Position numbers and translations under genes: made by a program
Shown: positions 1,349 to 42,338 of the stretch, in pieces
Layout: the number at the start of each line of letters is the position of its first letter
Numbering within the stretch: the stretch's first letter is position 1
IMG/VR virus record: IMGVR_UViG_3300009360_000004
Reading direction: 5' to 3' (one strand)
Source of the DNA: a virus
Length of the DNA: 42,338 nt
The notes under the pieces: generated by a model
Told to the model about the DNA's origin: nothing
Databases searched by the model: none
The model's input: only the letters and a program-made list of their open reading frames with translations

Positions 1349-1909
1349 ATGGGAAGACCATATCTTAGAAAGAAACACGTGACCATCTCGCTTTTTGATG
1401 CGACGACAACAACACCATTTACCCAGACCATCACCGGGTATGCCGACGTTCCGGAACTGCCCGAACCTGTCATAGACGCTCCGGCAGAAGGCTACGCCCC
1501 TCAAGGTGTGTTCAATTCGATCGAAGAAGGCGACGACACAATCAATCTGCCAGAGTTCTCAATCACAGTTGACATCAACGATGCAGATGTTGCGTCAAAC
1601 AAGTACGCGCTCAACGAATGGTTCAATAATCACAAAGATAGCACCGGCTCAACCACGCTCAAGTCCACGAATGACGGTTCGGCGTACCTGAAGAAGTCCA
1701 TCGACGGAAGCACTGTGTCTGCGAACCTTGCTACCGACTGGTTTACAATCGGTATGAAGATATTGTTTAACAACAGCGGAACTAGTAAAGCGTTTGGAAA
1801 GCAGTACAAGTATGTCAGACCTATTTCCGCAACTTTCAGTACCAGCAACAAGGCTCAGGTAACTCTCAGGATGCAGATAGTGGGCGCTCCGACCGACATC
1901 ACGTCGTAG
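1349..1909 (+). CDS. Putative major tail (tube) protein
   Basis: 186 aa ORF with AAAGGAGG RBS 7 nt upstream of ATG; T/S-rich beta-type composition; position in tail module. Confidence 0.4.
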   Translation: MGRPYLRKKHVTISLFDATTTTPFTQTITGYADVPELPEPVIDAPAEGYAPQGVFNSIEEGDDTINLPEFSITVDINDADVASNKYALNEWFNNHKDSTGSTTLKSTNDGSAYLKKSIDGSTVSANLATDWFTIGMKILFNNSGTSKAFGKQYKYVRPISATFSTSNKAQVTLRMQIVGAPTDITS

Positions 1910-1917
1910 GTGATGCT

Positions 1918-2157
1918 ATGAACATTGTTTATGAGATTGAACTGTACGACGGTAACGGAAAGCTGCTTGCAAAGTTTGAGAATCCGACAAAAACCACGAT
2001 CAAGGGTCCAATTACGATCGAGTCGGACAAGTTCATTGAGAACAACAAAGTCACTCTCCAATGCATTGCTACGAACGTTGTACTCGAAGAACTGAAAGAG
2101 GCTATCGTGAAGAGTCTTGGAACGAAAGAAGTAATCGACGACGAAAAAACTCTCTGA
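1918..2157 (+). CDS. Hypothetical protein (tail module)
   Basis: 79 aa ORF, ATG 1918, followed by a terminator hairpin. Confidence 0.45.
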   Translation: MNIVYEIELYDGNGKLLAKFENPTKTTIKGPITIESDKFIENNKVTLQCIATNVVLEELKEAIVKSLGTKEVIDDEKTL

Positions 2158-2186
2158 CGGAGGGGCTTCGGCCCCTTCGTTCTTTC
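2158..2186 (+). terminator. Rho-independent terminator (GGGGC-UUCG-GCCCC stem-loop plus T-rich tail)
   Basis: ggaggggcttcggccccttcgttcttt read directly; UUCG tetraloop hairpin followed by a T-rich run. Confidence 0.6.
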
Positions 2187-2198
2187 AGGAGGGATACT

Positions 2199-3557
2199 AT
2201 GGCATACAGAAAATGGCAGAAGAAAAAGACGAGTCTTAGCATAGAAGAACTCACAGAACAGGAAGTTCAAACAAGGATGCTGAATCGCACAAACAAAGGT
2301 CGATGCGGTTATACTCCTCACTTTTATGGTTCTCACTCTGGCCTTGTTGGAGCGAGAATAGGAGAGCTGGTAGCTCACAATATCCCAGACGATGCATATG
2401 GTGTGGAGTGGGATCTCAGCGACAGTTCTTCGGAGCTTACCAGGATAGGTCAAGCTGCAGGGATGGATTCTGATGACTTTGATCTTATTGAACCGTTTGC
2501 AAGTATAGAAAGAATGACTCTTGATAGTGACGGAAATTGGATAGCATCTTTTGGCGATGCGGGATTTGTTGAAGATGGTACAGCCGGTGATGTGGTATCA
2601 AGGTTCAAGAAAGCCTATTATTTTACATATTACTCGCCGGAAGACAAAAAAGTCAGAATGTACTTTTCACCTGAACCGCTGCCCGGGTTTGTACCGTTTG
2701 ACTGTTTTGTAACCGGCGGGCAAACACTCGAAGAAATATATCTAGGCGCATATGAAGGTACTGTTCAAAAAATATCAGACAGCTCATGGGTAGAAGACGC
2801 ATCAGACGGTTCGAATCCAATACAGATAGCTACTCTCGACCTTCCAGACCATATGTTACGTTCCGTCTCCGGAAGAAAGCCAAAAACTAACCAGAATTTA
2901 CCGGAGTTTCGTACTATGGCAGAGAACAGAGGCACTGGTTGGGGATTGGTTGATCTTAAACAGGCCGGAATGGTGAATCTGCTATATCTAATTAAATATG
3001 CTGATTTCGACGCTCAAACGACAGTGGGGCAGGGCATAACCGGAAAAGCATCTGGAACAGGGAACGAATCTGAATTGACTGGTGCAACAGCACTACTAGG
3101 AGCTGTGGACACAGGAGGAACCAACCTTGAAGCAGTCTCGCTATTCGGACTTGAAAACTGGTGGGGTAATATGTGGGAGTTCACAGACGGTGGTGGTATA
3201 AAGTCTGATGGGTTTTATGTAGCTCCAGATAGACCTTACAACGATACCCTAAGTGGATACACACAAATACCGTGTTCACCTCCATTGACAAACGGTTATC
3301 TGAAAGACTTTTACTGGACTCAGGACTCGAAAGGTCTGTTCCTGCCAAAAAGCGTTCAAACCGATGTTCCGTCTGCAAGCAAGTATGTGTGTGACTATCT
3401 ATATACTCCGGCAGCTTATACTACGAACTGCTTTCTACGGGGCGGCCGTTGGATTGACGGCTCGCATGCGGGGCCTTTCTATTGGCATCTGTATTATTCG
3501 TTTGCTTATCGGCATCGGAACGTCGGGGCGCGCGCCTGTTTTGTTCCTACGGTTTAA
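2199..3557 (+). CDS. DGR target protein: putative receptor-binding / tail protein with C-terminal variable region
   Basis: 452 aa from ATG 2199 (RBS caggaggg; the track ORF 2061-3557 reads through the terminator so the true start is 2199). C-terminus ...NCFLRGGRWIDGSHAGPFYWHLYYSFAYRHRNVGARACFVPTV matches the usual C-type-lectin-fold variable-region pattern of DGR targets (RGG-W...G.F...R.VGaR.C). Confidence 0.75.
   Translation: MAYRKWQKKKTSLSIEELTEQEVQTRMLNRTNKGRCGYTPHFYGSHSGLVGARIGELVAHNIPDDAYGVEWDLSDSSSELTRIGQAAGMDSDDFDLIEPFASIERMTLDSDGNWIASFGDAGFVEDGTAGDVVSRFKKAYYFTYYSPEDKKVRMYFSPEPLPGFVPFDCFVTGGQTLEEIYLGAYEGTVQKISDSSWVEDASDGSNPIQIATLDLPDHMLRSVSGRKPKTNQNLPEFRTMAENRGTGWGLVDLKQAGMVNLLYLIKYADFDAQTTVGQGITGKASGTGNESELTGATALLGAVDTGGTNLEAVSLFGLENWWGNMWEFTDGGGIKSDGFYVAPDRPYNDTLSGYTQIPCSPPLTNGYLKDFYWTQDSKGLFLPKSVQTDVPSASKYVCDYLYTPAAYTTNCFLRGGRWIDGSHAGPFYWHLYYSFAYRHRNVGARACFVPTV
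3428..3499 (+). repeat. DGR variable repeat (VR) at the 3-prime end of the target gene
   Basis: Aligns base for base with 3625-3696 (offset 197); 58/72 identical; all 14 mismatches sit where the other copy has A. Confidence 0.8.
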
Positions 3558-3624
3558 TGGTTTTCCGCGGTTTGTAACAATTTTGGTACATTAACATACA
3601 AGTTTGGTCTGTGATTGAAGGAAC

Positions 3625-3696
3625 CTGCTTTCAACAGGGCAGCAATTGGAATAACAGCTCGAATGCAGGGCCTTTCTATTGGAATCTGAATAATTA
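3625..3696 (+). repeat. DGR template repeat (TR), intergenic
   Basis: Non-coding copy of the VR carrying 22 adenines, 14 of which differ in the VR; seven AAY (Asn) codons in the VR reading frame, the classical TR signature. Confidence 0.8.
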
Positions 3697-3742
3697 CTCG
3701 TCTTACCGCATAATGACGTAAAGTGTAAAAAAAACAAACGAA

Positions 3743-3766
3743 GCAGCCTACAATAGGCTGTTTTTG
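3743..3766 (+). terminator. Rho-independent terminator immediately downstream of the TR
   Basis: cagccta-caa-taggctg hairpin followed by ttttt. Confidence 0.55.
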
Positions 3767-3809
3767 TTTATTAACGCAAATATCTTGAACCTCTACCGGA
3801 GGTGAATCT

Positions 3810-4715
3810 ATGAATGATTCAATGTATTTGGACTATGAGCTTTACGGCAATTCAGAAGCAAGAGATGAAATATACTATGACAATGGTTGGAAGTTGCTGA
3901 GACGCTGGCACAAAGAAACCGTTACTTTTGCCAGCAACACCGCAACGCTCTCAAAAGTCGGAAAAGGCGATTGTGAAGTCACGGGTGGTGTGGCAGGAGT
4001 CGTATCTGGCACCACCTGCACAGCAACCATCGCGGATGGAGACCATGAAGTTCTGTATATGCTTCTAATTCCTGAAACCACAGAAATTGGTGCGGGTGTT
4101 GGTTTTGCTACTGATAAAGACGGCGTAATGCTAGACCTTCATCAAGCCAAACAGGTCGATGTTTTTGTTGGTGATGGATATACAACCGAATTTACACTCA
4201 CTGAAACCCCGAATGGAACTGCAAGCATTAAGGCATTTGTAAATGGTCTTGAAGATACAGATGTAACCGTGACTACTACTAAGGTTACATTTACGACTGC
4301 CCCACGCCGCAAAGCGTTGGTTGAGGTTGAATATAGTCTTGCGGTCAAGTATCAGGAACCTTTGACGTATTTGGAATATCTCGAAGCCTCAGGAACCGTC
4401 GAAACAGTACCCGCTCTGGTAGATCTCACAGTCACAGAGAACGAAGAAAAGACAGGCTACGTCAACGTTGACGGTGCACCGCTCAAAGTCGCGGGTAACA
4501 AGACGTACACGGTCACAGTCAACAAAGATTTGATCGAGTCTCAGGACAATGTGCTGGAAGAATACAGAGACAAGAAATTCAGGCTCAAAGTTTCGAACTC
4601 AAGAGACTCAAGCAACGAATACCTCGGAGTCTGTCATATCGACCCCGACGCTTCTCTGGATTACCTGAACGGAACTGAATCAATCACGATAAAGTGTGGT
4701 GATCTCTATGATTAG
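3810..4715 (+). CDS. Putative structural (tail) protein, beta-rich, possible Ig-like C-terminal region
   Basis: 301 aa ORF, RBS cggaggtga before ATG 3810; T/V-rich segments (TVTVTTTKVTFTT, KTYTVTVNKD); no RT motifs. Confidence 0.45.
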   Translation: MNDSMYLDYELYGNSEARDEIYYDNGWKLLRRWHKETVTFASNTATLSKVGKGDCEVTGGVAGVVSGTTCTATIADGDHEVLYMLLIPETTEIGAGVGFATDKDGVMLDLHQAKQVDVFVGDGYTTEFTLTETPNGTASIKAFVNGLEDTDVTVTTTKVTFTTAPRRKALVEVEYSLAVKYQEPLTYLEYLEASGTVETVPALVDLTVTENEEKTGYVNVDGAPLKVAGNKTYTVTVNKDLIESQDNVLEEYRDKKFRLKVSNSRDSSNEYLGVCHIDPDASLDYLNGTESITIKCGDLYD

Positions 4716-5148
4716 CCTCGAATACGGCGTTGAAGTGATACAGCTCAAACCTAAAGACTACGAGAACTGGCTCTATTCTCCGAACGCTCCAACCGAGACA
4801 GACGCGGAATCAGGCGAAATCGTTGACAAGTGGGACACCGAGCAAGGTTCGACGTTTCAATACTTCTTGCTCACATGGGATGAGAACGGAGTGGCCACCC
4901 AGAGAGAAGTCTCGAAGCTCTACGACTTCCTGAAAGCGAAGCCGACCGTCGCAAACCCGATGACTCTCACATTCCCGATGTACCGGGAAGATGGTTCACA
5001 GTATCAGGGCAGGTTCTATGTGGTCTTTGCCGACACCGCGGGTGAGCAGCGTTGCCAATTTAATCAGGCTTTGCGCGCACCAGATGGCACGGCGTACTAC
5101 ACCGGAACGGTCGCATTGATCGAGATAGAAAGGAACGACGACGTGTAA
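4708..5148 (+). CDS. Hypothetical acidic protein (tail module)
   Basis: ORF 4696-5148; the ATG at 4708 overlaps the upstream stop; no recognisable motifs. Confidence 0.4.
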   Translation: MISLEYGVEVIQLKPKDYENWLYSPNAPTETDAESGEIVDKWDTEQGSTFQYFLLTWDENGVATQREVSKLYDFLKAKPTVANPMTLTFPMYREDGSQYQGRFYVVFADTAGEQRCQFNQALRAPDGTAYYTGTVALIEIERNDDV

Positions 5149-5167
5149 CACTCAGGGAGGGGATAAC

Positions 5168-6253
5168 TTGAAGGTCGCAGTTTACGCGATCGCAAAGAAC
5201 GAGGCTAAACACGTGCCTCGATGGTATGACTCCATCGCTGAAGCGGATGGAGTTTTTGTTACAGACACCGGTTCGACCGACAACACGGTTGAACTTCTCA
5301 AAGAACGTGGGGTCAATGTCTTTCATGCAGAGATCGAACCGTGGCGATTCGATGTAGCCAGAAACATCTCTCTTGAGAATGTACCTGAAGACTTCGACGT
5401 ATGTTTGTGCATTGATTTAGACGAAGTAATGGAGAAGGGCTGGAGAGAGAAGGTCGAGAGAATCTTTCGGCTTTACCCGCAGGCCACTCTCGTTCGCTGG
5501 CCGTTCGTGTTCAGCTGGTTCGATGAGAAATGCACGAAACCAAAGACTTCAATGTACCAGTGGAAGATTCACGTCAGACACGGTTATCACTGGGAGTCTC
5601 CCATTCACGAAATCTTGGTATGGCATGGGAATGGCGAGACTCTGGAAGTTTATTGCGAAGACATTCACAGCTGGCATTATCAGGATCTCTCGAAACCTAG
5701 AGAGTATCAGAAACTCATCGACAAGGCCGTCTCCGAAGATCCCACAGATCAACGTCTTTCATGGCTTCGTGCGAGAGAACTGATGATGCATAACAGATTT
5801 GAAGAGGCCATCGAAGAGGCCAAGAGGCACCTCGACCTCACCAAAGAGATCAAGGAAGGCGAGAACACGCTCGTTATTGAACAGCTCCGGGCGCTCTCAA
5901 TGCGGTATATCTCGCAGGCTCTCATGCAGAGACACAAGCAAGACAAGACAGTCGATGCGGGAGAAGTCATTGAATGGATGCTGAAGTCTGTGGCCGAGTG
6001 TCCCTGGCTCCGTGAATCGTGGGTGGCTCTCGCTCAAGCGTGGGCGCTCTTCGATCAGTGGGAACAGGTCTATGCGTGTGCGACTTTCGCGCAGACCATC
6101 AAGGCGAGAACGAATTCGATAGAAAACGACGAGCTGGCCTGGGGCGAGTACCCGGAAAAGCTCGCAAGAATAGCGTGGAAGCAGATCAGAAAAGGAGGGA
6201 AAAGATTTGAGCAACAAGCCAAAGACGGACGTTCAAAAAGCAGAAAAGTTTAA
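5168..6253 (+). CDS. Glycosyltransferase family 2-like protein with C-terminal helical (TPR-like) region
   Basis: 361 aa, TTG start after agggagggg RBS. N-terminus KVAVYAIAKNEAKHVPRWYDSIAEADGVFVTDTGSTDNTVELL plus downstream DLDEV (DxD) matches the GT-A fold pattern of GT2 enzymes. Confidence 0.6.
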   Translation: MKVAVYAIAKNEAKHVPRWYDSIAEADGVFVTDTGSTDNTVELLKERGVNVFHAEIEPWRFDVARNISLENVPEDFDVCLCIDLDEVMEKGWREKVERIFRLYPQATLVRWPFVFSWFDEKCTKPKTSMYQWKIHVRHGYHWESPIHEILVWHGNGETLEVYCEDIHSWHYQDLSKPREYQKLIDKAVSEDPTDQRLSWLRARELMMHNRFEEAIEEAKRHLDLTKEIKEGENTLVIEQLRALSMRYISQALMQRHKQDKTVDAGEVIEWMLKSVAECPWLRESWVALAQAWALFDQWEQVYACATFAQTIKARTNSIENDELAWGEYPEKLARIAWKQIRKGGKRFEQQAKDGRSKSRKV

Positions 6254-6773
6254 TCTCAAAGAGATGATGAAGGATCCCGGCAAGAAGGGATACTTCAGAT
6301 CTCACGGATACTCGGAAATCAAGGTCACGCGCATGAACGAAGAGGGCGAGATGGTCGTTGAGTATCCGAGAATTGAAATCTATCCTCTCGGGGATCACCC
6401 TGTGCTGAAACAATATCAAGATAAGTTCCCCGTTCCCGAGGCCCCAAAAACGATGCGGCTCATAAACAAGAACAACGGGAAAGAGTTCATCGACGAAGGG
6501 CTCTCGATCGAGCAGGCGAAGAACGACCCGAACTATGCCTGGGGCATGGTATATGACTACACCGACGGAGAATACCGCAAAGCAGTCGAGAAGCGAAGCA
6601 GCGATATCTCGATACTCATGATCATGATCTGTCTCGATATGGTCGAGGAGTTCGGGATCGAGAAGATAGAAGAGTTTCAGGAGGCTCTCAAAGATCTGGG
6701 CTTCACCGCAAATCAGCTCAACAAAATCGGGAGTGATATCAAGGCGCTGGATTTTTTGCCCAGCAAGAGCTAG
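6207..6773 (+). CDS. Tail assembly chaperone (gpG-like), upstream partner of a -1 frameshift pair
   Basis: 188 aa ORF immediately upstream of the tape measure gene, TTG start after aaaggaggg RBS; run of six T (6752-6757) near its 3-prime end; the -1 frame is open from 6737 to 7018. Confidence 0.55.
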   Translation: MSNKPKTDVQKAEKFNLKEMMKDPGKKGYFRSHGYSEIKVTRMNEEGEMVVEYPRIEIYPLGDHPVLKQYQDKFPVPEAPKTMRLINKNNGKEFIDEGLSIEQAKNDPNYAWGMVYDYTDGEYRKAVEKRSSDISILMIMICLDMVEEFGIEKIEEFQEALKDLGFTANQLNKIGSDIKALDFLPSKS

Positions 6774-7018
6774 AATACCGGGTACGTGACTGGTATGACT
6801 GGGACAGATTCGAGTACGAAGAGGAGTATGTCCCTGAAGCTCTGAAAGTGATGCTCTGCATACAGAAGTTTGGCCTCACGCTCGAGGAGTGGAGAGACCT
6901 GAAACGAGAGGACCAGCTGGTCTATCTCTACGGAATGACGGGAATCTCGATGCTCGAAAGGCGCGAAGCGGAGAGGGCAAAACAGGCAAGCCAGAATAGA
7001 GGGAGCGTTCTTGATTGA
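6752..7018 (+). other. Putative -1 programmed frameshift site (T TTT TTG) and gpT-like extension ORF
   Basis: Slippery heptamer at 6752-6758 in the zero frame of the chaperone; the -1 frame has no stop from 6737 to TGA 7016-7018 and no good start of its own; classic G/GT arrangement before a tape measure gene. Confidence 0.45.
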
Positions 7019-7036
7019 GCGCTCCTTTCTTTTGGA

Positions 7037-10000
7037 GTGATGACTATGGCTTTCGAAGGACTGAATTTTGATGTTGGCCTGAACTCGAGGCCGTTCACAG
7101 ACGGAATCAAGACGATGCAGACTCAGGCTGCCTCGTTTGATAATACAATCAAGAATATTGGCAGAACGCTTATGGGAGTCTTCGGGACCGTCTCTGTCGT
7201 CGCCACACTGAAGAAGTCTATCGAGTTGTGGGGCGAGCAGGAGCAAGCGATGATGAAACTCTCCATCGCCGCGCAGAGGTTCACGAGAGACGCGCAGGGT
7301 ACATACGACAGGGTCACAAAACTGTCGGGCAATCTCCAGCACCTCACGGGCATAGGGAACGAGACGTACCAATCCGTCGCGGCTCTGGGCCTCTCGCTCG
7401 GAATCACGGAGGAGAAGATCGAGAACGCCACGACCGCGGCGGCCCTCCTCTCGCAGGTGACGGGGATGGATCTGAACAGCGCCATGAAGAACCTGGCAAA
7501 GACTCAGGCGGGATTGACGGGTGAACTTGGAGAAGCTCTCCCGTTTCTCAGAGAACTGACGCAAGAACAATTGAAGAGTGGTGCAGCAATCGACCTCGTG
7601 ATTCAGAAGTATGACGGCTTTGCCGAGCAGCTTTCAGGCACAACGCAGGTGGCGATGAAGAGATTCTGGTCCGCGCTTGGAGATGTCGGGGAGGTCCTGG
7701 GCAAGTCGTTCAACCCCTTGATTCAAAAAGCCGCTGACTGGATGGAAGGCTTCAGCTCGAAGATCGAGAAACCGACCGACATTCTCAAGACACTAAAAGA
7801 CACGATCAAGGCAGGATACGAAGAACTCGGGCCGTTCGGCAAGGCTGTTGTAGGTGTAGGTGCTGCGTTCCTGACGCTCAAGGTTGCTGGCACTGCATGG
7901 AGCTTGCTCTCACAGATAGTTGTGGCTGGTGGTCATCTGATTGTAGGCGTGTTCAAGACGATATTCTCGTGGCCCACACTCTTAATTGCTGGTTTGTACA
8001 CCCTTCGTGTTGCATGGGATCACGACTGGTTCGGGATTCAGGGGACGGTTGAACACGTTTGGAAAGTGATTGAGCCTATATTTATAAAACTCAAAGACGG
8101 TCTCGTCTCAGCCTCCACATGGGCTATATCTCTGGTTTGGGAAGGCGTGAAGTGGGCTGGAGAAAAGATAGCCGTCACATACGAAACTATCAAAGACTGG
8201 GTGCTCGAAGAGCTTGCACTTGGGAAGTCCCCGCTTGAGATCGTCGTTGATGCCGCAAAGATTGCGGGCGGTGTTGTCTGGGATGGTCTTACATGGGTAG
8301 GAGAAAAAATCGCGCTAGGTACGCAAATAGTCTTTGACTGGGTAAAATCTCAATTTGGAGATGAAATAGAGGTTGTAATCAATGCAGCTAAAGTCTTCGG
8401 TGGTATGGTTTGGAAAGGGCTCAAATGGGCCGGAGAGAAAGCAATAGTTACTGCACAGATGATTTATGATTTTGCTCTTAAATATGTACCGCTTGGTATT
8501 GAGACTGTTATCAACGTTGCATCAGTGTTTGGTTCGGTGATTTGGTCCGGCTTAAAATGGATAGGTGAAAAAGCAGTTAATCTTGCGGTTCTTATCAAAG
8601 ACTTTGCAGAAAGTGAAATAGATACAGGCTTTGAACAAACAATACAGATTGCAAAAGTCTTCGGCTCTATCATATGGTCTGGTCTCAAGTGGGTTGGAGA
8701 AAAGATAGTTCTCGGTATCAAAGTGATAGAAGGTTGGGTGAGAGATCAACTTGATCTCCCAGAAACCGCAACGCTCCCTGAAATCTTCCTTGATATGGTC
8801 AGAGTAGTTGGCACGGCAGCGTGGGATGGCTTGAAATGGGTAGGCCAGAAGGTTGCTATTGGTGCCAAAGAAGTCTATGATTGGGCTTCCGAAGGGCTAG
8901 AAACAGGCTTTGAACTCACAATCGAAGTTGCTAAACTGTTTGGCGGGGTAGCCTGGCAAGGGTTGGTAAAACTCGGTGAATGGTCATATGATGTTGCTGT
9001 GTGGGCTAAGGACAATGTCCTCCCTGCTGTGATTGAGACTACGGTTGAAGTTGGAAAGGTAATCGGTGGCGTTAGCTGGCTAGGTCTCAAATGGGTAGGT
9101 TCACAGATTGCGATAGGTTTTGACACTCTCAGAAACTGGGTCTATTCGGAGCTTGGCCTTGACAAGTATGGAGCGACATCAAATATCCTGATCGAAGTTG
9201 CCAAAGTCTTCGGAGGTCTAGGCTGGCTCGGTTTGAAATGGACCGGAGAAACGATAATTCTCGGATACGAAGCGCTCAAGAAGTGGACTGAAGAGCAGCT
9301 AGGCACCACACCGGTTGACATCATTCTCAATGTTGCGAAAGTAACAGGCACGGCAATCTGGGAAGGTGTGAAGTGGATAGACGACAAACTCCCAAAGATT
9401 GATCTCGGTGCTGACGATGAACAGAAAGTAGATCAGGGCATCGTGGATGTAGTTGTGAGTGCGATAGCTAACATTGCATCGTGGCAGTGGAGGGGCTTTG
9501 TCTGGCTCACTGAGAAGGCTTCATTCGGGCTCGACTGGCTCGCAGATCAGATCCGACCGAAAATAAATGTTGAAGTAAACGGAGACGATAACTCGGGTTT
9601 TGATATTGGAGATATAGGAGTATTCGCAAAGGGAGTCGCGAAGGTATTCTCAATGAAGTGGGAAGCCGTCAAGTGGCTCTGGACGAAAGTCACACAGAGC
9701 ACTTTCATTGAGGACCTGAAAAACAGAATAAAGAAATCATCGGGCATAGATGATGAGGTCGAAGTCACCTGGAAAGACTTGTTAGTCCGGGGCTTCGGCT
9801 CTATTGGCTCTGCCGCGTGGGATGGTCTTACATGGTTTGCGGAAGGTCCGGTACATACATTTGCCGACTGGGTACGAAAGCAGATCGGTATGAGCGAAGC
9901 CGGAGAGATGAAAGTAAACCTCGGGGATGACATTAAAGTGATCCTCTCGGGTGCAGTCTCTGGTGCGACTTGGCTAGTTGATTGGGTCAAACAAGGGATA

Positions 10001-12346
10001 GGGGCCGCAACCGAATGGCTTCAAGATGTAGGAGCAGTCCTTCGTAGGGCTGTGGAAGGCGTAGAAATGAGCGCAGAGGATATAAAACTCTATGAAACCA
10101 CGGCTTCGTTTGGCGTAAAATTGGGTGAGTTCATAGGTGCTGGAATCAAAGCGGGCCTCAATCTTCTTGACATAATTCAGAGTGCGCTTGCTGGAGTAAT
10201 TGCAGAAATGACAGGCTCAAAAGAAGTTGGCCAAGTTGCTGGGACTGCAATTCCTTTGTTTTTCACTGCAAAGTGGCTCATGACTCCAATTGCTACACTT
10301 ACCCCATTTCTTGTTGCTGCAATGGGTTTCGCGGGATTGAAGCCTCTCACTTTCGGGACGTTCGGTGTGATGGTTGCGTTAAAAGTTGCGCAGGATCTTT
10401 CAACAGGCGAGGCCGAGTGGCAGGACATAGGGGCAAGGTTCGTTGCCGCCCTTGCCGTGGGTATGGGGATAGGAGCGTTTCTCGGCAGTCCGAGCGCGGG
10501 GGTGCTGACATTCGAGCTTCTCATGCTCGTCAAAGTTGAAAAGTTTGTTGACAGCATAGGAAATGTTGTGAAAGATCTTGTGGACGCTGTCCTGTTCCCT
10601 GAATTCGTCGATCTTCCTGTATCTGAGAAGATGGAGAAGACTATCGGCGCACTTGAAAAGCTCGATCAGACTCTTGACAGACCCGCAGACAATCTTGCAA
10701 CGTGGCTCATCACTGTGGATGAAGCACTCGGAAATTTTTACAATACATTCCCGACGAAAGTCGAACTCAATCAGATGGGCGAACTTGAACAGAGCTACTA
10801 TATGGCCGTGCTCGAATATGCTCATGCCCTTGAGGCGTCATCAAATGCGATACTCGATGCAGCAGATGATCTTGCAGCAACGGCTCAAATGATCGAGAAC
10901 ATGAGACAGATAGTTGTGCCGATACCTGGGAAAGCAGAAGGCGGTTACATCTCAGGCCCGGGCGGTCCTAAAGAGGATAGAATACCCGCCCTACTCTCGA
11001 ACGGTGAGTTCGTAGTCAATGCGAAGTCAACCGAAAAGTGGCTACCGTTCTTGAAAGCAATCAATGCTCAAGGCTTTGCAGACGGTGGAATAGCTCGGTT
11101 TGCCACAGGCACGGCAACGAAGATAGACGTTGGCAGTATTGGTGGTGGTCCGCTCACATGGTGGGATACAATTCTAAACACCCTTATGAGTGTGGTCGGA
11201 GACTATGCCGAGACCGCAAAGAAAGACTTCGGGATGATTAAGAACGTACTCGGAGACTTGCTCAGAACAATAGGTCTTGACATCGACGCGCCGCTAGACA
11301 ATCTGAACAAACTGCAAAGTGAGCTTGACGGTCTGACTCTTTCTACGAGCGATACAGGTGATACAGTAGAAGACTTCATGACCGCCATGTTCAGGGGATA
11401 TCGCAAAATCAATCAAATCTCTGAGGTTCTCAGTGAAGGCAAGATAGAGAACGTCAATAGACAGCTTGCGTTCCTTGATACTGCGATGAACGATCTTGAA
11501 AAACAGTTCATGGAAGGAACCATCCAGCTCGGAGAGTACACGGAAAGAATGACATATCTCAAGAATTTGACAGACAGTTTCTCTGACTCTCTCGGAGACC
11601 TCAAGAAGAAGATTGAACGCAGCTCGATAGTCGGTGACTCATCCGAGATATTCAAGGTTGACGAGAACACCGGCGAGCTGGTCTCTGTATTTGCAAAACT
11701 GAGGCCGGGCATGGAAGGACTCACAGATGTTGTGGGCAATTTAGCCACAGCGGGTGAAATGTTTGCCATGAGTCTGTTGAATCAGGTCGTGAACCTCGAA
11801 GCTATCAACATGCTCCTGAATCCGATCTCAACGATTCTCACAGGTGTGATGGAGATACTAGGTCCGATCATCAACCTCTTGAAACCTCTCGGCGACGCGC
11901 TGGTCAGCATAGGCAGAGTCTTCGCCCTGACGTTCAATCTCTTCGGTCAGGGCCTCCTGGTTCTCCAACCGTTCTTCAAGGCTCTAGGCTGGCTCGGTGC
12001 TACGATCTCGTATATCGCGGACCAGATAGTCCTGTTCGTCGATGGAATTTTCACCTGGTTAAGCACTCTGCCGTTCATAGGTGGTCTGTTCAGTCCTCTC
12101 CTAACAGAGGATCAGAGGCAGAGCATGAAGCGCACCATCCCGGAGAGGATGGAAGATATCGAGCTTCCACAGTCCACGACAGGGCAGGTCTTCCAGGCAG
12201 GGAGTTCCCAGCACATCACGAACAACTACCACTTCGAGTTCAGGGGAAACGACATTCTCACAGAAGACGACGAAAGCGCCCGACGGTTCGCAGATCTCAT
12301 CTACAAGAACCTTCGCGATCGCGGCGTTCAGTTGCAGGTAGGGTGA
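7037..12346 (+). CDS. Tail tape measure protein
   Basis: 1769 aa ORF (ATG at 7040 or 7046 more likely than GTG 7037); largest gene, after the chaperone pair; N-terminal coiled coil, hydrophobic central segments, at least ten tandem ~45 aa repeats carrying W-x-G-L-K-W-x-G-E-K. Confidence 0.85.
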   Translation: MMTMAFEGLNFDVGLNSRPFTDGIKTMQTQAASFDNTIKNIGRTLMGVFGTVSVVATLKKSIELWGEQEQAMMKLSIAAQRFTRDAQGTYDRVTKLSGNLQHLTGIGNETYQSVAALGLSLGITEEKIENATTAAALLSQVTGMDLNSAMKNLAKTQAGLTGELGEALPFLRELTQEQLKSGAAIDLVIQKYDGFAEQLSGTTQVAMKRFWSALGDVGEVLGKSFNPLIQKAADWMEGFSSKIEKPTDILKTLKDTIKAGYEELGPFGKAVVGVGAAFLTLKVAGTAWSLLSQIVVAGGHLIVGVFKTIFSWPTLLIAGLYTLRVAWDHDWFGIQGTVEHVWKVIEPIFIKLKDGLVSASTWAISLVWEGVKWAGEKIAVTYETIKDWVLEELALGKSPLEIVVDAAKIAGGVVWDGLTWVGEKIALGTQIVFDWVKSQFGDEIEVVINAAKVFGGMVWKGLKWAGEKAIVTAQMIYDFALKYVPLGIETVINVASVFGSVIWSGLKWIGEKAVNLAVLIKDFAESEIDTGFEQTIQIAKVFGSIIWSGLKWVGEKIVLGIKVIEGWVRDQLDLPETATLPEIFLDMVRVVGTAAWDGLKWVGQKVAIGAKEVYDWASEGLETGFELTIEVAKLFGGVAWQGLVKLGEWSYDVAVWAKDNVLPAVIETTVEVGKVIGGVSWLGLKWVGSQIAIGFDTLRNWVYSELGLDKYGATSNILIEVAKVFGGLGWLGLKWTGETIILGYEALKKWTEEQLGTTPVDIILNVAKVTGTAIWEGVKWIDDKLPKIDLGADDEQKVDQGIVDVVVSAIANIASWQWRGFVWLTEKASFGLDWLADQIRPKINVEVNGDDNSGFDIGDIGVFAKGVAKVFSMKWEAVKWLWTKVTQSTFIEDLKNRIKKSSGIDDEVEVTWKDLLVRGFGSIGSAAWDGLTWFAEGPVHTFADWVRKQIGMSEAGEMKVNLGDDIKVILSGAVSGATWLVDWVKQGIGAATEWLQDVGAVLRRAVEGVEMSAEDIKLYETTASFGVKLGEFIGAGIKAGLNLLDIIQSALAGVIAEMTGSKEVGQVAGTAIPLFFTAKWLMTPIATLTPFLVAAMGFAGLKPLTFGTFGVMVALKVAQDLSTGEAEWQDIGARFVAALAVGMGIGAFLGSPSAGVLTFELLMLVKVEKFVDSIGNVVKDLVDAVLFPEFVDLPVSEKMEKTIGALEKLDQTLDRPADNLATWLITVDEALGNFYNTFPTKVELNQMGELEQSYYMAVLEYAHALEASSNAILDAADDLAATAQMIENMRQIVVPIPGKAEGGYISGPGGPKEDRIPALLSNGEFVVNAKSTEKWLPFLKAINAQGFADGGIARFATGTATKIDVGSIGGGPLTWWDTILNTLMSVVGDYAETAKKDFGMIKNVLGDLLRTIGLDIDAPLDNLNKLQSELDGLTLSTSDTGDTVEDFMTAMFRGYRKINQISEVLSEGKIENVNRQLAFLDTAMNDLEKQFMEGTIQLGEYTERMTYLKNLTDSFSDSLGDLKKKIERSSIVGDSSEIFKVDENTGELVSVFAKLRPGMEGLTDVVGNLATAGEMFAMSLLNQVVNLEAINMLLNPISTILTGVMEILGPIINLLKPLGDALVSIGRVFALTFNLFGQGLLVLQPFFKALGWLGATISYIADQIVLFVDGIFTWLSTLPFIGGLFSPLLTEDQRQSMKRTIPERMEDIELPQSTTGQVFQAGSSQHITNNYHFEFRGNDILTEDDESARRFADLIYKNLRDRGVQLQVG

Positions 12347-12350
12347 TAGT

Positions 12351-12698
12351 ATGACAGTTGACATAGGATCTCTCAGTTTCACGGTGTACCCGAAGAAATA
12401 CAAGCACCCATACAGAACCAGAGTGATCGAGCCGGTGGAGGTCATAAACATTGCGCCCGACGGTTCGGCATATCACTATTGTGACGGCACGGTGAAGAGA
12501 TACAAAATACCTCTCTTCTTCACCGAGTCGGACAGAACCACGCTGGAATCATACAGGCAGACCGCGGCGACTTTGAAGATAGACTCGGAGTCTGCCGTGA
12601 ATGTGAAACTGATCGGGAACTACGAGTACAAAGAAAAGTGGATCAAAGGCGTGGCAATGTACGAAGAAACGCTTGAGTTCCTGGAGGTGGCCACATGA
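12351..12698 (+). CDS. Hypothetical tail protein (distal tail protein position)
   Basis: 115 aa ORF directly after the tape measure gene, overlapping the next gene by 4 nt. Confidence 0.4.
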   Translation: MTVDIGSLSFTVYPKKYKHPYRTRVIEPVEVINIAPDGSAYHYCDGTVKRYKIPLFFTESDRTTLESYRQTAATLKIDSESAVNVKLIGNYEYKEKWIKGVAMYEETLEFLEVAT

Positions 12699-34580: not shown

Positions 34581-34652
34581 AGGCACGTAGCGCAATGGCA
34601 GCGCATCCGTCTCATAAACGGAAGGGTAGCGGTTCGAATCCGTTCGTGCCAC
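34581..34652 (+). tRNA. tRNA with CAU anticodon (tRNA-Met or lysidine-modified tRNA-Ile2 type)
   Basis: Hand-folded cloverleaf: 6 bp acceptor stem plus A1-A72 mismatch, D arm gcgc/aatggca/gcgc, anticodon arm tccgt-ctCATaa-acgga, variable loop agggt, T arm agcgg-ttcgaat-ccgtt. Confidence 0.6.
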
Positions 34653-34821: not shown

Positions 34822-34998
34822 TTGAGTCAGGCCATACAATGCGACGAATGTGGAAAGACTGCACATATGACCCATCACTGGCACAAGCTCGACGGGCTGG
34901 ACTTCTGCTCGTGGAAGTGTGTGCGAAGGTTTGCGAATCGAAGGATCAAACAGGATCGGGAGTATCAGAGAGAGAAAGAAGGGATTGAATGCAGATAG
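34822..34998 (+). CDS. Small zinc-binding protein
   Basis: 58 aa from TTG 34822, 5 nt after tggaggt RBS; CDECGK ... CSWKC. Confidence 0.4.
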   Translation: MSQAIQCDECGKTAHMTHHWHKLDGLDFCSWKCVRRFANRRIKQDREYQREKEGIECR

Positions 34999-36155
34999 AA
35001 AAGAAGAAAGTCTCCGACTTAAAGTGTGCTCCATACAACCCGCGAAAGATTGACGACAAAGAGCTTGCAAAACTAAAACGAAGCATCACCGAGTTTGGTT
35101 ATGTAGAACCTATTGTCTGGAATAAACGCTCGGGCTTCGTTGTGGGAGGTAATCAGAGACTCAAGGCATTACGTGAGCTTGAAATAGAGGAAGCCGATGT
35201 CGTGGTTGTTGACCTTGACGACGCAAAGGAGAAAGCTCTCAATGTCGCCTTGAATAAAATCTCTGGCGAGTGGGACTTCATCAAGCTAAAGGACGTATTG
35301 ACTGACATTGACACAGGAGACTTTGACATAGAGCTGACTGGGTTTGATTTGGATGAGATAGGAGAATTGATAGCTTTCGACAAAGAACCTGAAGAAGATG
35401 GTTTCGACGTAGACGCTGCATTAGAAAACACAGAAGAACCCGTGACAAAACGCGGTGACATTTACCTGCTTGGAAAACATCGCCTGATGTGCGGGGACTC
35501 AACTATCAAAGAAGATGTCGAGAAGCTGATGGATGGTAAGAAAGCGGATATGGTGTTCACTGACCCGCCTTATGGGGTGAATTACGATGGCGGCACTAAA
35601 CTACGAAACAAATTAGCGGGCGATGATACCACCGATTTGTACGAGCCTTGCTGCAAAATGGCACGCGATTTCTCGACGAACGAAGCGGCTTTGTATCTTT
35701 GGCACGCAGGGGTGAAAGGGATAGCAGCCGCAGCCGCAGCCGCAGATTGGGTCATTCGTTGTGAGATAGTTTGGAATAAAAACCATGCACAATTCGGCGC
35801 GTTGTCGGCACAGTACAAACAAAAGCACGAGCCTTGTTATTATTGCTACAAAAAAGGAAAGACGGTAAATTGGTGTGGGCCGAAAAACGAAGTAACGGTG
35901 TGGGACGTTGACAGAGCGTTGGTGAATGAATACCATCCCACACAGAAGCCGGTGGAGTTGGCAAAACGCGCTATTCAAAACCACAAAGCGGATTTGGTAC
36001 TCGACTTATTCGGCGGCTCAGGCTCAACACTCATAGCTTGTGAACAGCTCAACCGCATCTGCTACATGATAGAAATTGACGAGCGATACTGCGATGTAAT
36101 CGTAAAGCGTTGGGAAGAATTCACAGGCAAGAAAGCTCAATTGATGAGGAAGTGA
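34989..36155 (+). CDS. ParB-like nuclease domain fused to DNA N6-adenine/N4-cytosine methyltransferase
   Basis: 388 aa; C-terminal motif IV FTDPPYG precedes motif I LDLFGGSGST; N-terminal ~120 aa is ParB/Srx-like. Confidence 0.7.
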   Translation: MQIEKKKVSDLKCAPYNPRKIDDKELAKLKRSITEFGYVEPIVWNKRSGFVVGGNQRLKALRELEIEEADVVVVDLDDAKEKALNVALNKISGEWDFIKLKDVLTDIDTGDFDIELTGFDLDEIGELIAFDKEPEEDGFDVDAALENTEEPVTKRGDIYLLGKHRLMCGDSTIKEDVEKLMDGKKADMVFTDPPYGVNYDGGTKLRNKLAGDDTTDLYEPCCKMARDFSTNEAALYLWHAGVKGIAAAAAAADWVIRCEIVWNKNHAQFGALSAQYKQKHEPCYYCYKKGKTVNWCGPKNEVTVWDVDRALVNEYHPTQKPVELAKRAIQNHKADLVLDLFGGSGSTLIACEQLNRICYMIEIDERYCDVIVKRWEEFTGKKAQLMRK

Positions 36156-36159
36156 TTTT

Positions 36160-36486
36160 ATGGCTGGCAGACCGAAAAAGAAAATAGACTATGAGCTTGT
36201 CGAGAAGCTGGCCTATATTCAGTGTACACAAGAAGAAATCAGCTCGATTCTTGGCATATCGACAAGGACTCTTCAGAGAGACAAAGAATTTTGTCGCATA
36301 TATAAAAACGGAATGGACAACGGGAAGATGTCTCTAAGGCGGTTACAGTGGAAGGCCGCAGAAAAAGGCAATAACACAATGCTAGTTTGGCTCGGTAAAC
36401 AGTACCTCGGCCAGACAGACAAGCAAGAGATGGCTCACTCTGGCAGCCTCGACATCACTGTGGACGTGGTTGAAGATGGCGATTAA
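36160..36486 (+). CDS. terS: Terminase small subunit
   Basis: 108 aa; MAGRPKKKIDYELVEKLAYIQCTQEEISSILGISTRTLQRD is a typical HTH-type small terminase N-terminus; directly upstream of the large subunit. Confidence 0.65.
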   Translation: MAGRPKKKIDYELVEKLAYIQCTQEEISSILGISTRTLQRDKEFCRIYKNGMDNGKMSLRRLQWKAAEKGNNTMLVWLGKQYLGQTDKQEMAHSGSLDITVDVVEDGD

Positions 36487-37684
36487 AATTCACACCCGCA
36501 TATTCAACAAGGCTTTCAAACCGTATCTCGACAACCGCTCGCGCTACGAGATCTTCTACGGTGGCGCAGGTTCGGGCAAGTCGATGTTTATCGCCCAGAG
36601 ACTCGTCCTTCGTGCAATGAAGGAGAAAGGTCACAAGTTTCTCATAGTCAGGAAGGTCGCAAAGACGAACCGGCATTCGACGTTCGCGCTTATCATGGGG
36701 ATTCTCAGGGTATGGAAGGTTCTCGGACTTTTCAAAGTCAACAAGTCCGACATGGAGATCGGCTGTCTGAATGGCAATCAAGTCATCTTCACCGGTCTTG
36801 ACGACGTGGAAAAGCTCAAGTCGATCGCGGGTATCACGGACATCTGGGTCGAAGAAGCGAGCGAGATCACGCAGGAAGACTTCCAGCAGCTTGACTTGCG
36901 ACTCAGGGGCAAGACTCAATGGCCGCTGCAAATCACAATGACATTCAATCCGGTGTCGGCTTTGAGCTGGTTGAAGGCTTTCTTCTTCGATGAACCGAAA
37001 GAGAACTGTGTCATCCACAAATCGACGTACAAAGACAATCGTTTCCTGGACGACGAATATAAGAAAGTCATAGAAGACTTGAAAAATCAGGATCACACGT
37101 ACTATCAGATATACGGACTCGGTGAATGGGGTGTTCTCGGAAACCTCGTCTTCCACAACTACGTGTTCGAAGACATTCCCTACAAAGAGCAAGACTTTGA
37201 CGCTGTTTATCAGGGCCTCGACTTTGGCTTCAATCATCCCTCGGCTCTCGTTCGTGTGGGATTCAAAGACGATGAACTCTACGTCTTCGACGAGCTGTAC
37301 GAGAAAGGGCTCACGAACGCGGAACTCATTCAGGAAGTCGGCAGGATGATCGACAAGCGTTCGCAGCTCATAGCGGACTCAGCCGAACCCGCGAGAATCA
37401 AAGAGTTTCAGCAGTCTGGTTTCAGAATCAGCGGTTCGGTCAAGGGCAAAGGTTCTGTGAAAGATGGTATCGACTGGCTCAAGAGACACAAGATCCACAT
37501 CTCGAAGAAGTGCCCAAACCTGCTTGCTGAGATTCAGCAATACAGCTACAAAGAAGACAAAGACGGCAATGTCTTGGATGAACCGATCGAATTCAAAGAC
37601 GACGCGATCGCGGCACTTAGATATGCGATCGAACCTGTGAGACTGAGACGCAAAATCACAGCCGGATACTCGGCGTGGAGGTAA
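36476..37684 (+). CDS. terL: Terminase large subunit (PBSX/Terminase_3-like)
   Basis: ATG 36476 (track ORF starts TTG 36470); Walker A YGGAGSGKS; acidic C-terminal nuclease-type region; followed by portal gene. Confidence 0.8.
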   Translation: MAIKIHTRIFNKAFKPYLDNRSRYEIFYGGAGSGKSMFIAQRLVLRAMKEKGHKFLIVRKVAKTNRHSTFALIMGILRVWKVLGLFKVNKSDMEIGCLNGNQVIFTGLDDVEKLKSIAGITDIWVEEASEITQEDFQQLDLRLRGKTQWPLQITMTFNPVSALSWLKAFFFDEPKENCVIHKSTYKDNRFLDDEYKKVIEDLKNQDHTYYQIYGLGEWGVLGNLVFHNYVFEDIPYKEQDFDAVYQGLDFGFNHPSALVRVGFKDDELYVFDELYEKGLTNAELIQEVGRMIDKRSQLIADSAEPARIKEFQQSGFRISGSVKGKGSVKDGIDWLKRHKIHISKKCPNLLAEIQQYSYKEDKDGNVLDEPIEFKDDAIAALRYAIEPVRLRRKITAGYSAWR

Positions 37685-42073: not shown

Positions 42074-42338
42074 ATGGCACTCCTGACATTGACGCAATAC
42101 AAAGCACTCAGGGGAATCACAAGCTCGACTCAAGATACTCAACTCACGGCGATAATCTCGGCGGTCGAAGCAGAGATCAAGGGTGTCTGTGGGTACGACG
42201 ATGACGAAGATCTCCCCTCGGCTCTCCAACTCACGGCCTGCGACATGGTGGATCACCAGATGCTGGAGATATCCGGTATCAAGTCTCAGAGTCTCGAAGG
42301 CGCTTCGGTCACATACGAAAGTAGCTATTCTCAGAAGA
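42074..42338 (+). CDS. Head-tail connector/adaptor protein (gp6-like), 5-prime part; continues at 1-180
   Basis: ATG 42074 after ggaggtg RBS; reading frame continuous through the terminal repeat to the stop at 178-180 (about 102 aa in total). Confidence 0.55.
   Translation, partial: MALLTLTQYKALRGITSSTQDTQLTAIISAVEAEIKGVCGYDDDEDLPSALQLTACDMVDHQMLEISGIKSQSLEGASVTYESSYSQK

Follow-up and report, generated by a model that had tools for sequence, protein, structure and literature searches.

A recognisable initiation-of-mutagenic-homing element in a probably defunct phage diversity-generating retroelement

The stretch analysed here (the window; 42,338 nt, IMG/VR record IMGVR_UViG_3300009360_000004) carries a diversity-generating retroelement (DGR) locus in which a tail protein gene ends in a variable repeat (VR) and is followed, after a short spacer, by a truncated template repeat (TR). 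The subject of this work is a 13-nt run of G and C only, cggggcgcgcgcc, at the 3′ end of the VR. A sequence-only reading had likened this run to the initiation of mutagenic homing (IMH) element of Bordetella phage BPP-1 and had proposed that the unlike 3′ flanks of VR and TR act as an IMH/IMH* pair that sets the direction of transfer. Pfam and PHROG comparisons identified a terminase (36470-37684), a Mu-F-like head protein and a major head protein, marking the window as a phage genome. Its first 136 nt (1-136) are identical to its last (42203-42338) and the related contig L001 crosses this junction, so that the window represents a complete phage genome, circular or terminally redundant, of about 42.2 kb.

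The DGR target is an open reading frame (ORF, 2061-3557) whose product matches the PHROG family phrog_5302 'tail protein' (E = 7.7e-73); the protein and its C-terminus had no match in Pfam or in PDB sequences, and blastn of window positions 2061-5200 against 50,697 phage records returned no match. BLASTP aligned the target C-terminus collinearly with Mtd of BPP-1 (GG.W..GS.A...SFA..GAR), at a non-significant E value of 0.42. The 3′ end of the gene reads CGG AAC GTC GGG GCG CGC GCC TGT TTT GTT CCT ACG GTT TAA, giving V-G-A-R-A-C-F-V-P-T-V-stop as the last codons. The GC-only run lies within this ORF at exactly 3524-3536, where the sequence-only reading had placed it, and encodes (V)G-A-R-A.

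An 84-nt direct repeat pairs positions 3428-3511 with 3625-3708. Up to 3498 in the upstream copy and 3695 in the downstream copy the two differ at 13 positions, all 13 of which are adenines in the downstream copy, identifying the repeat starting at 3428 as a DGR VR and that starting at 3625 as its TR. Past these positions the mismatches involve bases other than adenine and an indel is needed to align the copies, as had been noted earlier, and the window TR copy contains no GC-only run, likewise in agreement with the earlier description. The TR copy ends before the part that would template VR positions 3499-3522 and before any IMH*, making related cassettes the necessary reference for this part of the VR.

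We obtained relatives as public contigs, using scans with the target protein and with TR/VR patterns. Two of them, L011 (Ga0123335; also represented by L015 and L016) and L018 (Ga0116147), carry an intact cassette, in which the target gene with VR, a 67-nt spacer, the TR (about 120 nt), a second spacer (about 115 nt) and the gene for a reverse transcriptase (RT) of 334 aa with IGNYTSQYFANFYL (IGNYTSQ) and YMDD motifs follow one another; the L011 RT matches Pfam RVT_1 (E = 7e-17). The spacer between TR and RT matches the Rfam family RF03020 (RT-17 RNA) in L018 (332-412, 43.4 bits) and in L015 (476-556, 39.7 bits), against a gathering score of 40.4. Further intact cassettes were sought with an RT-based scan of viral contigs, which recovered only L011 itself, with a metagenome pattern scan, which added L018, and with a genome scan, which yielded only a 1.1-kb RT-less contig from a metagenome-assembled genome.

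Aligning the window VR with the intact L011 TR revealed further A-to-N differences at 3507, 3513, 3517 and 3522, with 19 of the 20 mismatches up to 3537 falling at TR adenines. The adenine-mutagenised core thus extends past 3499, the position at which the sequence-only reading had ended it. We then compared alignment columns among eight distinct VRs (the window, L002, L003, L004, L005, L011, L017 and L018), a ninth, L023, being read by eye. Across 3429-3523, variation affected 27 of 32 TR-adenine columns and 10 of 63 other columns (Fisher p = 8e-11); across 3524-3545 it affected one of four TR-adenine columns. That single column is 3527 (G in seven VRs, A in two), and it is also the only position at which the GC run departs from invariance among the nine related VRs. 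No VR departs from G at the TR-adenine columns 3530 and 3534, nor from T at 3537. Variability across the relatives therefore does not stop at 3499, as had been suggested, but reaches 3522, the last hypervariable column; hypervariability gives out at the 5′ edge of the GC run, within the interval 3522-3530. This is the place of a BPP-1-type IMH, directly 3′ of the last A-to-N site and marking the end of variability.

Position 3530 is a synonymous site, since the TR codon GCA and the VR codon GCG both encode alanine; its invariance is thus not explained by selection on the protein. Third codon positions from 3524 to 3554 are variable in 3 of 11 columns, as opposed to 241 of 317 (76%) in the target gene outside the VR (Fisher p = 0.0012), and within the 13-mer itself in one of five.

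We further aligned the annotated VR1 and TR of BPP-1 (AY029185.2) to the window. The BPP-1 VR1 reads TTC TTC GGG GCG CGC GGC GTC TGT GAC and its TR AAC ATC GGG GCG CGC GGC GTC TGT GCC; its (GC)14 element, CGGGGCGCGCGGCG, occupies TR positions 100-113. Window positions 3523-3534 (TCGGGGCGCGCG) are identical to positions 99-110 of both BPP-1 repeats, a 12-nt match that takes in the start of (GC)14 and the first 11 bases of the window's GC run, bearing out the comparison with characterised IMH elements that had been recommended. The match lies in the same place in both systems, directly after the last mutagenised AAC-type codon and within the last codons of a C-terminal lectin-type VR, and it uses the same G-A-R codons, GGG GCG CGC. 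A BPP-1-type IMH opens with a GC-only segment of about 14 bp, for which the window offers 13 bp.

In BPP-1 the IMH consists of (GC)14, which TR and VR share unchanged, and of the next 21 bp, where five mismatches set directionality; the coconversion boundary maps to 107-112, inside (GC)14 (Guo et al., PMC3240598). Those positions correspond to window 3531-3536, 1-9 nt from the boundary derived here (3522-3530), placing the limit of transfer in or at the GC run in both phages; in both, VR/TR homology runs on past the run with fixed mismatches and then ends. Synthesis of complementary DNA (cDNA) starts at BPP-1 TR G117, just 3′ of the run, primed from spacer RNA (Handa et al., PMC6182149). The RT-17 RNA matches of L018 and L015 lie between TR and RT, the place of the cDNA-priming Sp region of BPP-1 (PMC6182149); this RNA has no counterpart in the window, and its priming role in the window-related phages is putative. 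In a survey of 372 DGRs, IMH/IMH* pairs with a GC-rich start were predictable in nearly all (Wu et al. 2018, PMC5758913). The 3′ boundary of mutagenesis directly upstream of the IMH is common to those DGRs and the present one, whereas here, with an incomplete cassette, the pair becomes visible only through the TR of relatives.

Several differences from BPP-1 are evident. The IMH* of both intact TRs reads CGGAGCACGCACC, followed by AGC, so that the run of the VR is interrupted by three adenines and the GC segment, unlike (GC)14, is not the same in TR and VR. Between the window's IMH-like segment and this IMH* there are five differences, four of which (3527, 3530, 3534 and 3537) lie at TR adenines in or next to the run and the fifth at 3539, whereas all five mismatches of BPP-1 fall in the 21 bp after it; two of those seen here, 3537 and 3539, follow the run and interrupt a partial VR/TR identity in the BPP-1 manner. 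The homology is shorter, at about 22 nt as opposed to 35. No avd gene lies between target gene and TR, where BPP-1 has one, and the window additionally lacks the TR 3′ end and the RT. Neither the window nor its relatives have an ORF in the VR-TR interval or the TR-RT interval; small ORFs elsewhere were not scanned for Avd.

BPP-1 also has a hairpin after the target stop codon, CGGGGCC-GAAA-GGCCCCG (8-bp GC, GRNA loop), and none is present here. A hairpin or cruciform following the VR had been put forward for examination: predicted DNA folding of 3500-3625 was no better than that of shuffled sequences (z = +1.15), and an inverted-repeat scan detected no GC-rich repeat with a 7-10 bp stem and GRNA loop in 3537-3625, yielding only the GC palindrome of the run itself and CCGCGG (3565-3570), the latter not conserved in L002, L003 and L018. 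Such a downstream inverted repeat occurs in only 34% of surveyed DGRs (PMC5758913).

The three adenines within the run of the intact TRs could serve as a discriminator between donor and recipient in the window-related phages. The IMH/IMH* mismatches also break the GC palindrome of the VR, GGCGCGCGCC, 10 bp at 3527-3536. A predicted pairing in the TR RNA between IMH* (GCACC) and GGUGC of the TR-RT spacer, seen in two sequences whose paired bases show no covariation, is offered as a lead only. Separately, two otherwise unrelated DGRs, in L010 (rc 2700-3010) and L013 (rc 960-1300), have an exact 24-mer, CCTTTCTATTGGAATCTGAATAAT, in common between their TRs; in them, as in the window-related DGRs, TR adenines stand opposite mainly guanines at the VR 3′ end, several at synonymous sites.

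Composition by itself carries no weight. The window has 50.3% G+C and three GC-only 13-mers (at 3524, 26653 and 41071) for about 2.6 expected, at least one such 13-mer arises in 290 of 300 shuffles of the window, and GGCGCGCGCC is one of 26 perfect 10-bp palindromes. We rejected the rarity of both run and palindrome as evidence, as both occur at chance frequency; any significance of the run must consequently come from its position and its conservation.

Comparison with L011 resolved the flank asymmetry differently. L011rc 1-399 corresponds to window 3297-3695 and L011rc 1530-5798 to window 3774-8038; the two are otherwise collinear, 1130 nt (L011rc 400-1529) being replaced by 78 nt in the window. 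Gone with those 1130 nt are 40% of the TR, at its 3′ end, the RT-17 spacer and nearly the whole RT gene; the last 12 codons of the gene survive because the ribosome-binding site and start of the following gene (3810-4715) overlap with them. When VR 3499-3557 was aligned locally with the replacement segment, 113 of 2000 shuffles matched the result and the best part of the alignment was a T-run, so that the similarity said to decay after 3499 is at chance level; the same VR stretch aligned with the intact TR over 46 contiguous nt, matched by none of 2000 shuffles. Because 3695/3696 is a replacement junction, the non-A mismatches and the 1-nt indel represent chance resemblance, not divergence between IMH and IMH*. 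The VR/TR flank asymmetry in the window is a deletion or replacement scar and not a directionality signal. Read in the VR frame, the TR stub and filler (3626-3721) stay open to an in-frame TAA (..NLNNYSSYRIMT*), after which the A8 tract and terminator follow, resembling the 3′ end of a gene. Coordinates of the locus are collected in Table 1.

Table 1. Features of the DGR locus in the window
Feature	Position	Strand	Description
DGR target gene, 498-aa phage tail protein	2061..3557	+	ORF; VR at C-terminus; stop codon 3555-3557
VR	3428..3522	+	TR homology from 3428; A-to-N differences from 3436 to 3522
IMH-like segment	3523..3544	+	VR/TR homology past the last hypervariable position, ending at about 3544
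GC-only 13-mer CGGGGCGCGCGCC	3524..3536	+	Counterpart of BPP-1 (GC)14; conserved in related VRs
Non-coding VR-TR spacer	3558..3624	+	67 nt; without avd gene, without GC-rich inverted repeat
TR remnant	3625..3695	+	5′ 71 nt of the TR of about 120 nt; collinearity with L011rc lost at 3695
Replacement segment, 78 nt	3696..3773	+	A8 tract; intrinsic terminator (stem-loop 3740-3764 plus T-run)
RT ORF remnant, last 12 codons	3775..3810	+	tblastn of L011 RT: only residues 323-334, 83% identity

The window genome, complete as it is, encodes no RT detectable by motif scan, by Pfam on 20 ORFs, by a PHROG scan of the long ORFs or by tblastn with the RT of relatives, whereas L011 and L018 encode theirs with the TR. 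An Rfam scan of the window returned only a tRNA and no RT-17, and a complete TR with IMH* and priming spacer RNA is likewise missing. Lacking RT, TR 3′ end and priming RNA, the window phage can make no cDNA, and nothing is being transferred. In line with this, two further strains, L001 and L014 (IMG samples 3300026195 and 3300009122), which show 21 and 24 substitutions relative to the window across 10-12 kb, are 100% identical to it over 3300-3850, VR included; this identity of three strains is consistent with a VR frozen in the window lineage.

Collectively, these results indicate that the region probably represents the 3′ end of the VR of a DGR that is defunct in the window phage, with its IMH still recognisable. 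The GC run is an IMH-type element, as indicated by its position at the variability boundary, its conservation at synonymous sites and its 12-nt identity to the BPP-1 (GC)14 region; this half of the earlier proposal stands, while the half that assigned direction-setting to the flank asymmetry falls with the junction at 3695/3696 and the missing RT. In the intact relatives we infer that the run forms the boundary of cDNA integration. The ancestral cassette would have comprised the tail protein gene with VR and IMH, the spacer of 67 nt, a roughly 120-nt TR with IMH* at its end, an RT-17-type spacer RNA and the RT. In such an ancestor, cDNA made from TR RNA would have replaced the VR, with adenines randomised up to the equivalent of 3522 and with the GC run as the 3′ limit of information transfer, like (GC)14 in phage BPP-1. 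The run also encodes the invariant G-A-R-A(-C) of the lectin-type scaffold. Replacement of 1130 nt in the window lineage, starting at TR nucleotide 72 and stopping 36 nt short of the RT gene's 3′ end, by the 78-nt terminator-bearing segment has left a VR that is frozen, an IMH that is intact but idle, and a TR stub of 71 nt.

Other explanations were weighed against a relic DGR. Since differences between IMH and IMH* determine directionality in BPP-1 (PMC3240598), and since the two flanks do differ here with a GC run on the VR side only, the window could be supposed to hold a working pair, the run-bearing VR flank acting as recipient, the divergent TR flank as IMH*, and the two jointly setting direction. 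We regard this as barely credible: compared with intact TRs, that of the window breaks off at 3695, the flank beyond has no significant similarity to VR or intact TR, the complete genome holds neither RT nor an RT-17 or Sp-type RNA, and the VR is identical in three strains. A purely coding origin of the run is a more substantial objection, in which the run would have no role at the DNA level, merely encoding the invariant G-A-R-A of a lectin-fold scaffold, and intolerance of the protein to change would stop variability. Glycine, alanine, arginine and alanine force G or C at 8 of 12 codon bases, the 13-mer is at chance frequency, Mtd of BPP-1 likewise ends in ..FGARGV, and the constant amino acids at VR 3′ ends are encoded by the IMH in the survey of Wu et al. 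(PMC5758913). Synonymous sites make it unlikely nonetheless: the codon at 3528-3530 has its final G in nine of nine VRs though the TR has GCA and any base would give alanine, third positions vary far less here than in the rest of the gene, the codons are those of BPP-1 although the genome has only 50% G+C, and adenine mutagenesis reaching 3530 should have produced synonymous variants.

RT-less phages might alternatively keep VR and IMH as a landing pad, diversified in trans by co-infecting relatives or host elements that provide TR and RT. Such supply in trans of avd-TR-brt works for BPP-1 (PMC3240598); the IMH is kept at synonymous sites in all RT-less relatives, whose VRs differ at TR-adenine positions, and L022, a related contig and the one locus whose habitat is labelled, derives from a bioreactor metagenome. 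We nevertheless hold this to be highly improbable, given the VR identity in three strains of the window lineage; diversification that preceded each RT loss accounts equally well for the VR differences among lineages, and protein constraint and recent descent likewise account for IMH conservation. A bolder version, in which landing-pad VR and IMH are re-diversified by TR cDNA of co-infecting relatives in which TR, RT-17 RNA and RT persist and repeated RT loss amounts to cheating instead of plain decay, is likewise quite improbable.

The interpretation as a relic DGR with a recognisable IMH has its own weak points. Because the nine VRs share descent, some of the constancy of the GC run reflects common ancestry or recent spread of the cassette; the neighbouring non-coding VR-TR spacer is also well conserved in four relatives (and nearly identical in L002, L005 and L011), indicating that recent cassette spread contributes to the synonymous-site signal. 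The run is largely dictated by the G-A-R-A codons and is not rarer than chance in the genome. The IMH* rests on two TRs, those of the only two intact cassettes found, and the stasis of the window VR was judged from three strains. No source was found for the 78-nt filler, which has no significant similarity to VR or intact TR 3′ ends; its sole match is a 14-nt sequence, TCGTCTTACCGCAT, common to L002.

RT loss is recurrent in this group, with at least four separate junctions, and the VR and the GC run are always kept; only two of nine distinct relatives retain the RT. The window and L002 have the same left junction (TCGTCTTACCGCAT), and L002 carries at 11686-12375, exactly where intact relatives have the TR 3′ end and RT, a gene for a 229-aa HNH endonuclease (Pfam HNH, E = 2.7e-07). 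A homing endonuclease may have taken part in the RT replacement. In L005, only 23 nt of the TR are left; nothing remains beyond the first 25 spacer nucleotides (GTAACAAT) in L003, L004, L022 and L023, and nothing from 3554 onwards in L017.

These findings correct the annotation of the phage, which should list a relic DGR with frozen VR, TR stub and no RT, not an active one, and they show that unlike VR and TR flanks at a cassette may mark nothing more than the edge of a deletion. They also offer natural comparative confirmation of the IMH concept outside Bordetella, with the same 12 nt in the same place and the boundary in or at the GC run. That the RT was lost independently at least four times within a single small group of phages suggests that a DGR is readily discarded once a useful receptor-binding variant is fixed. 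The chief points of interest are this repeated loss and the IMH* variant with adenines inside its GC run.

Elsewhere in the window, a family-2 glycosyltransferase gene (5168-6253; phrog_13126, E = 2.8e-80) sits within the tail module, and the DGR target lies two genes upstream of it. In an ORF of 1769 aa (7037-12346), a Trp/Gly-rich unit (..W..GLKW.GEK..) recurs as six to seven diverged copies at 8129-9264, mostly 132 nt (44 aa) apart; the product of this ORF is probably an internal virion or tape-measure-like protein. A tRNA-Met (CAT) gene (34581-34652) precedes a ParB-N/DNA-methyltransferase fusion gene (34989-36155) and the terminase gene.

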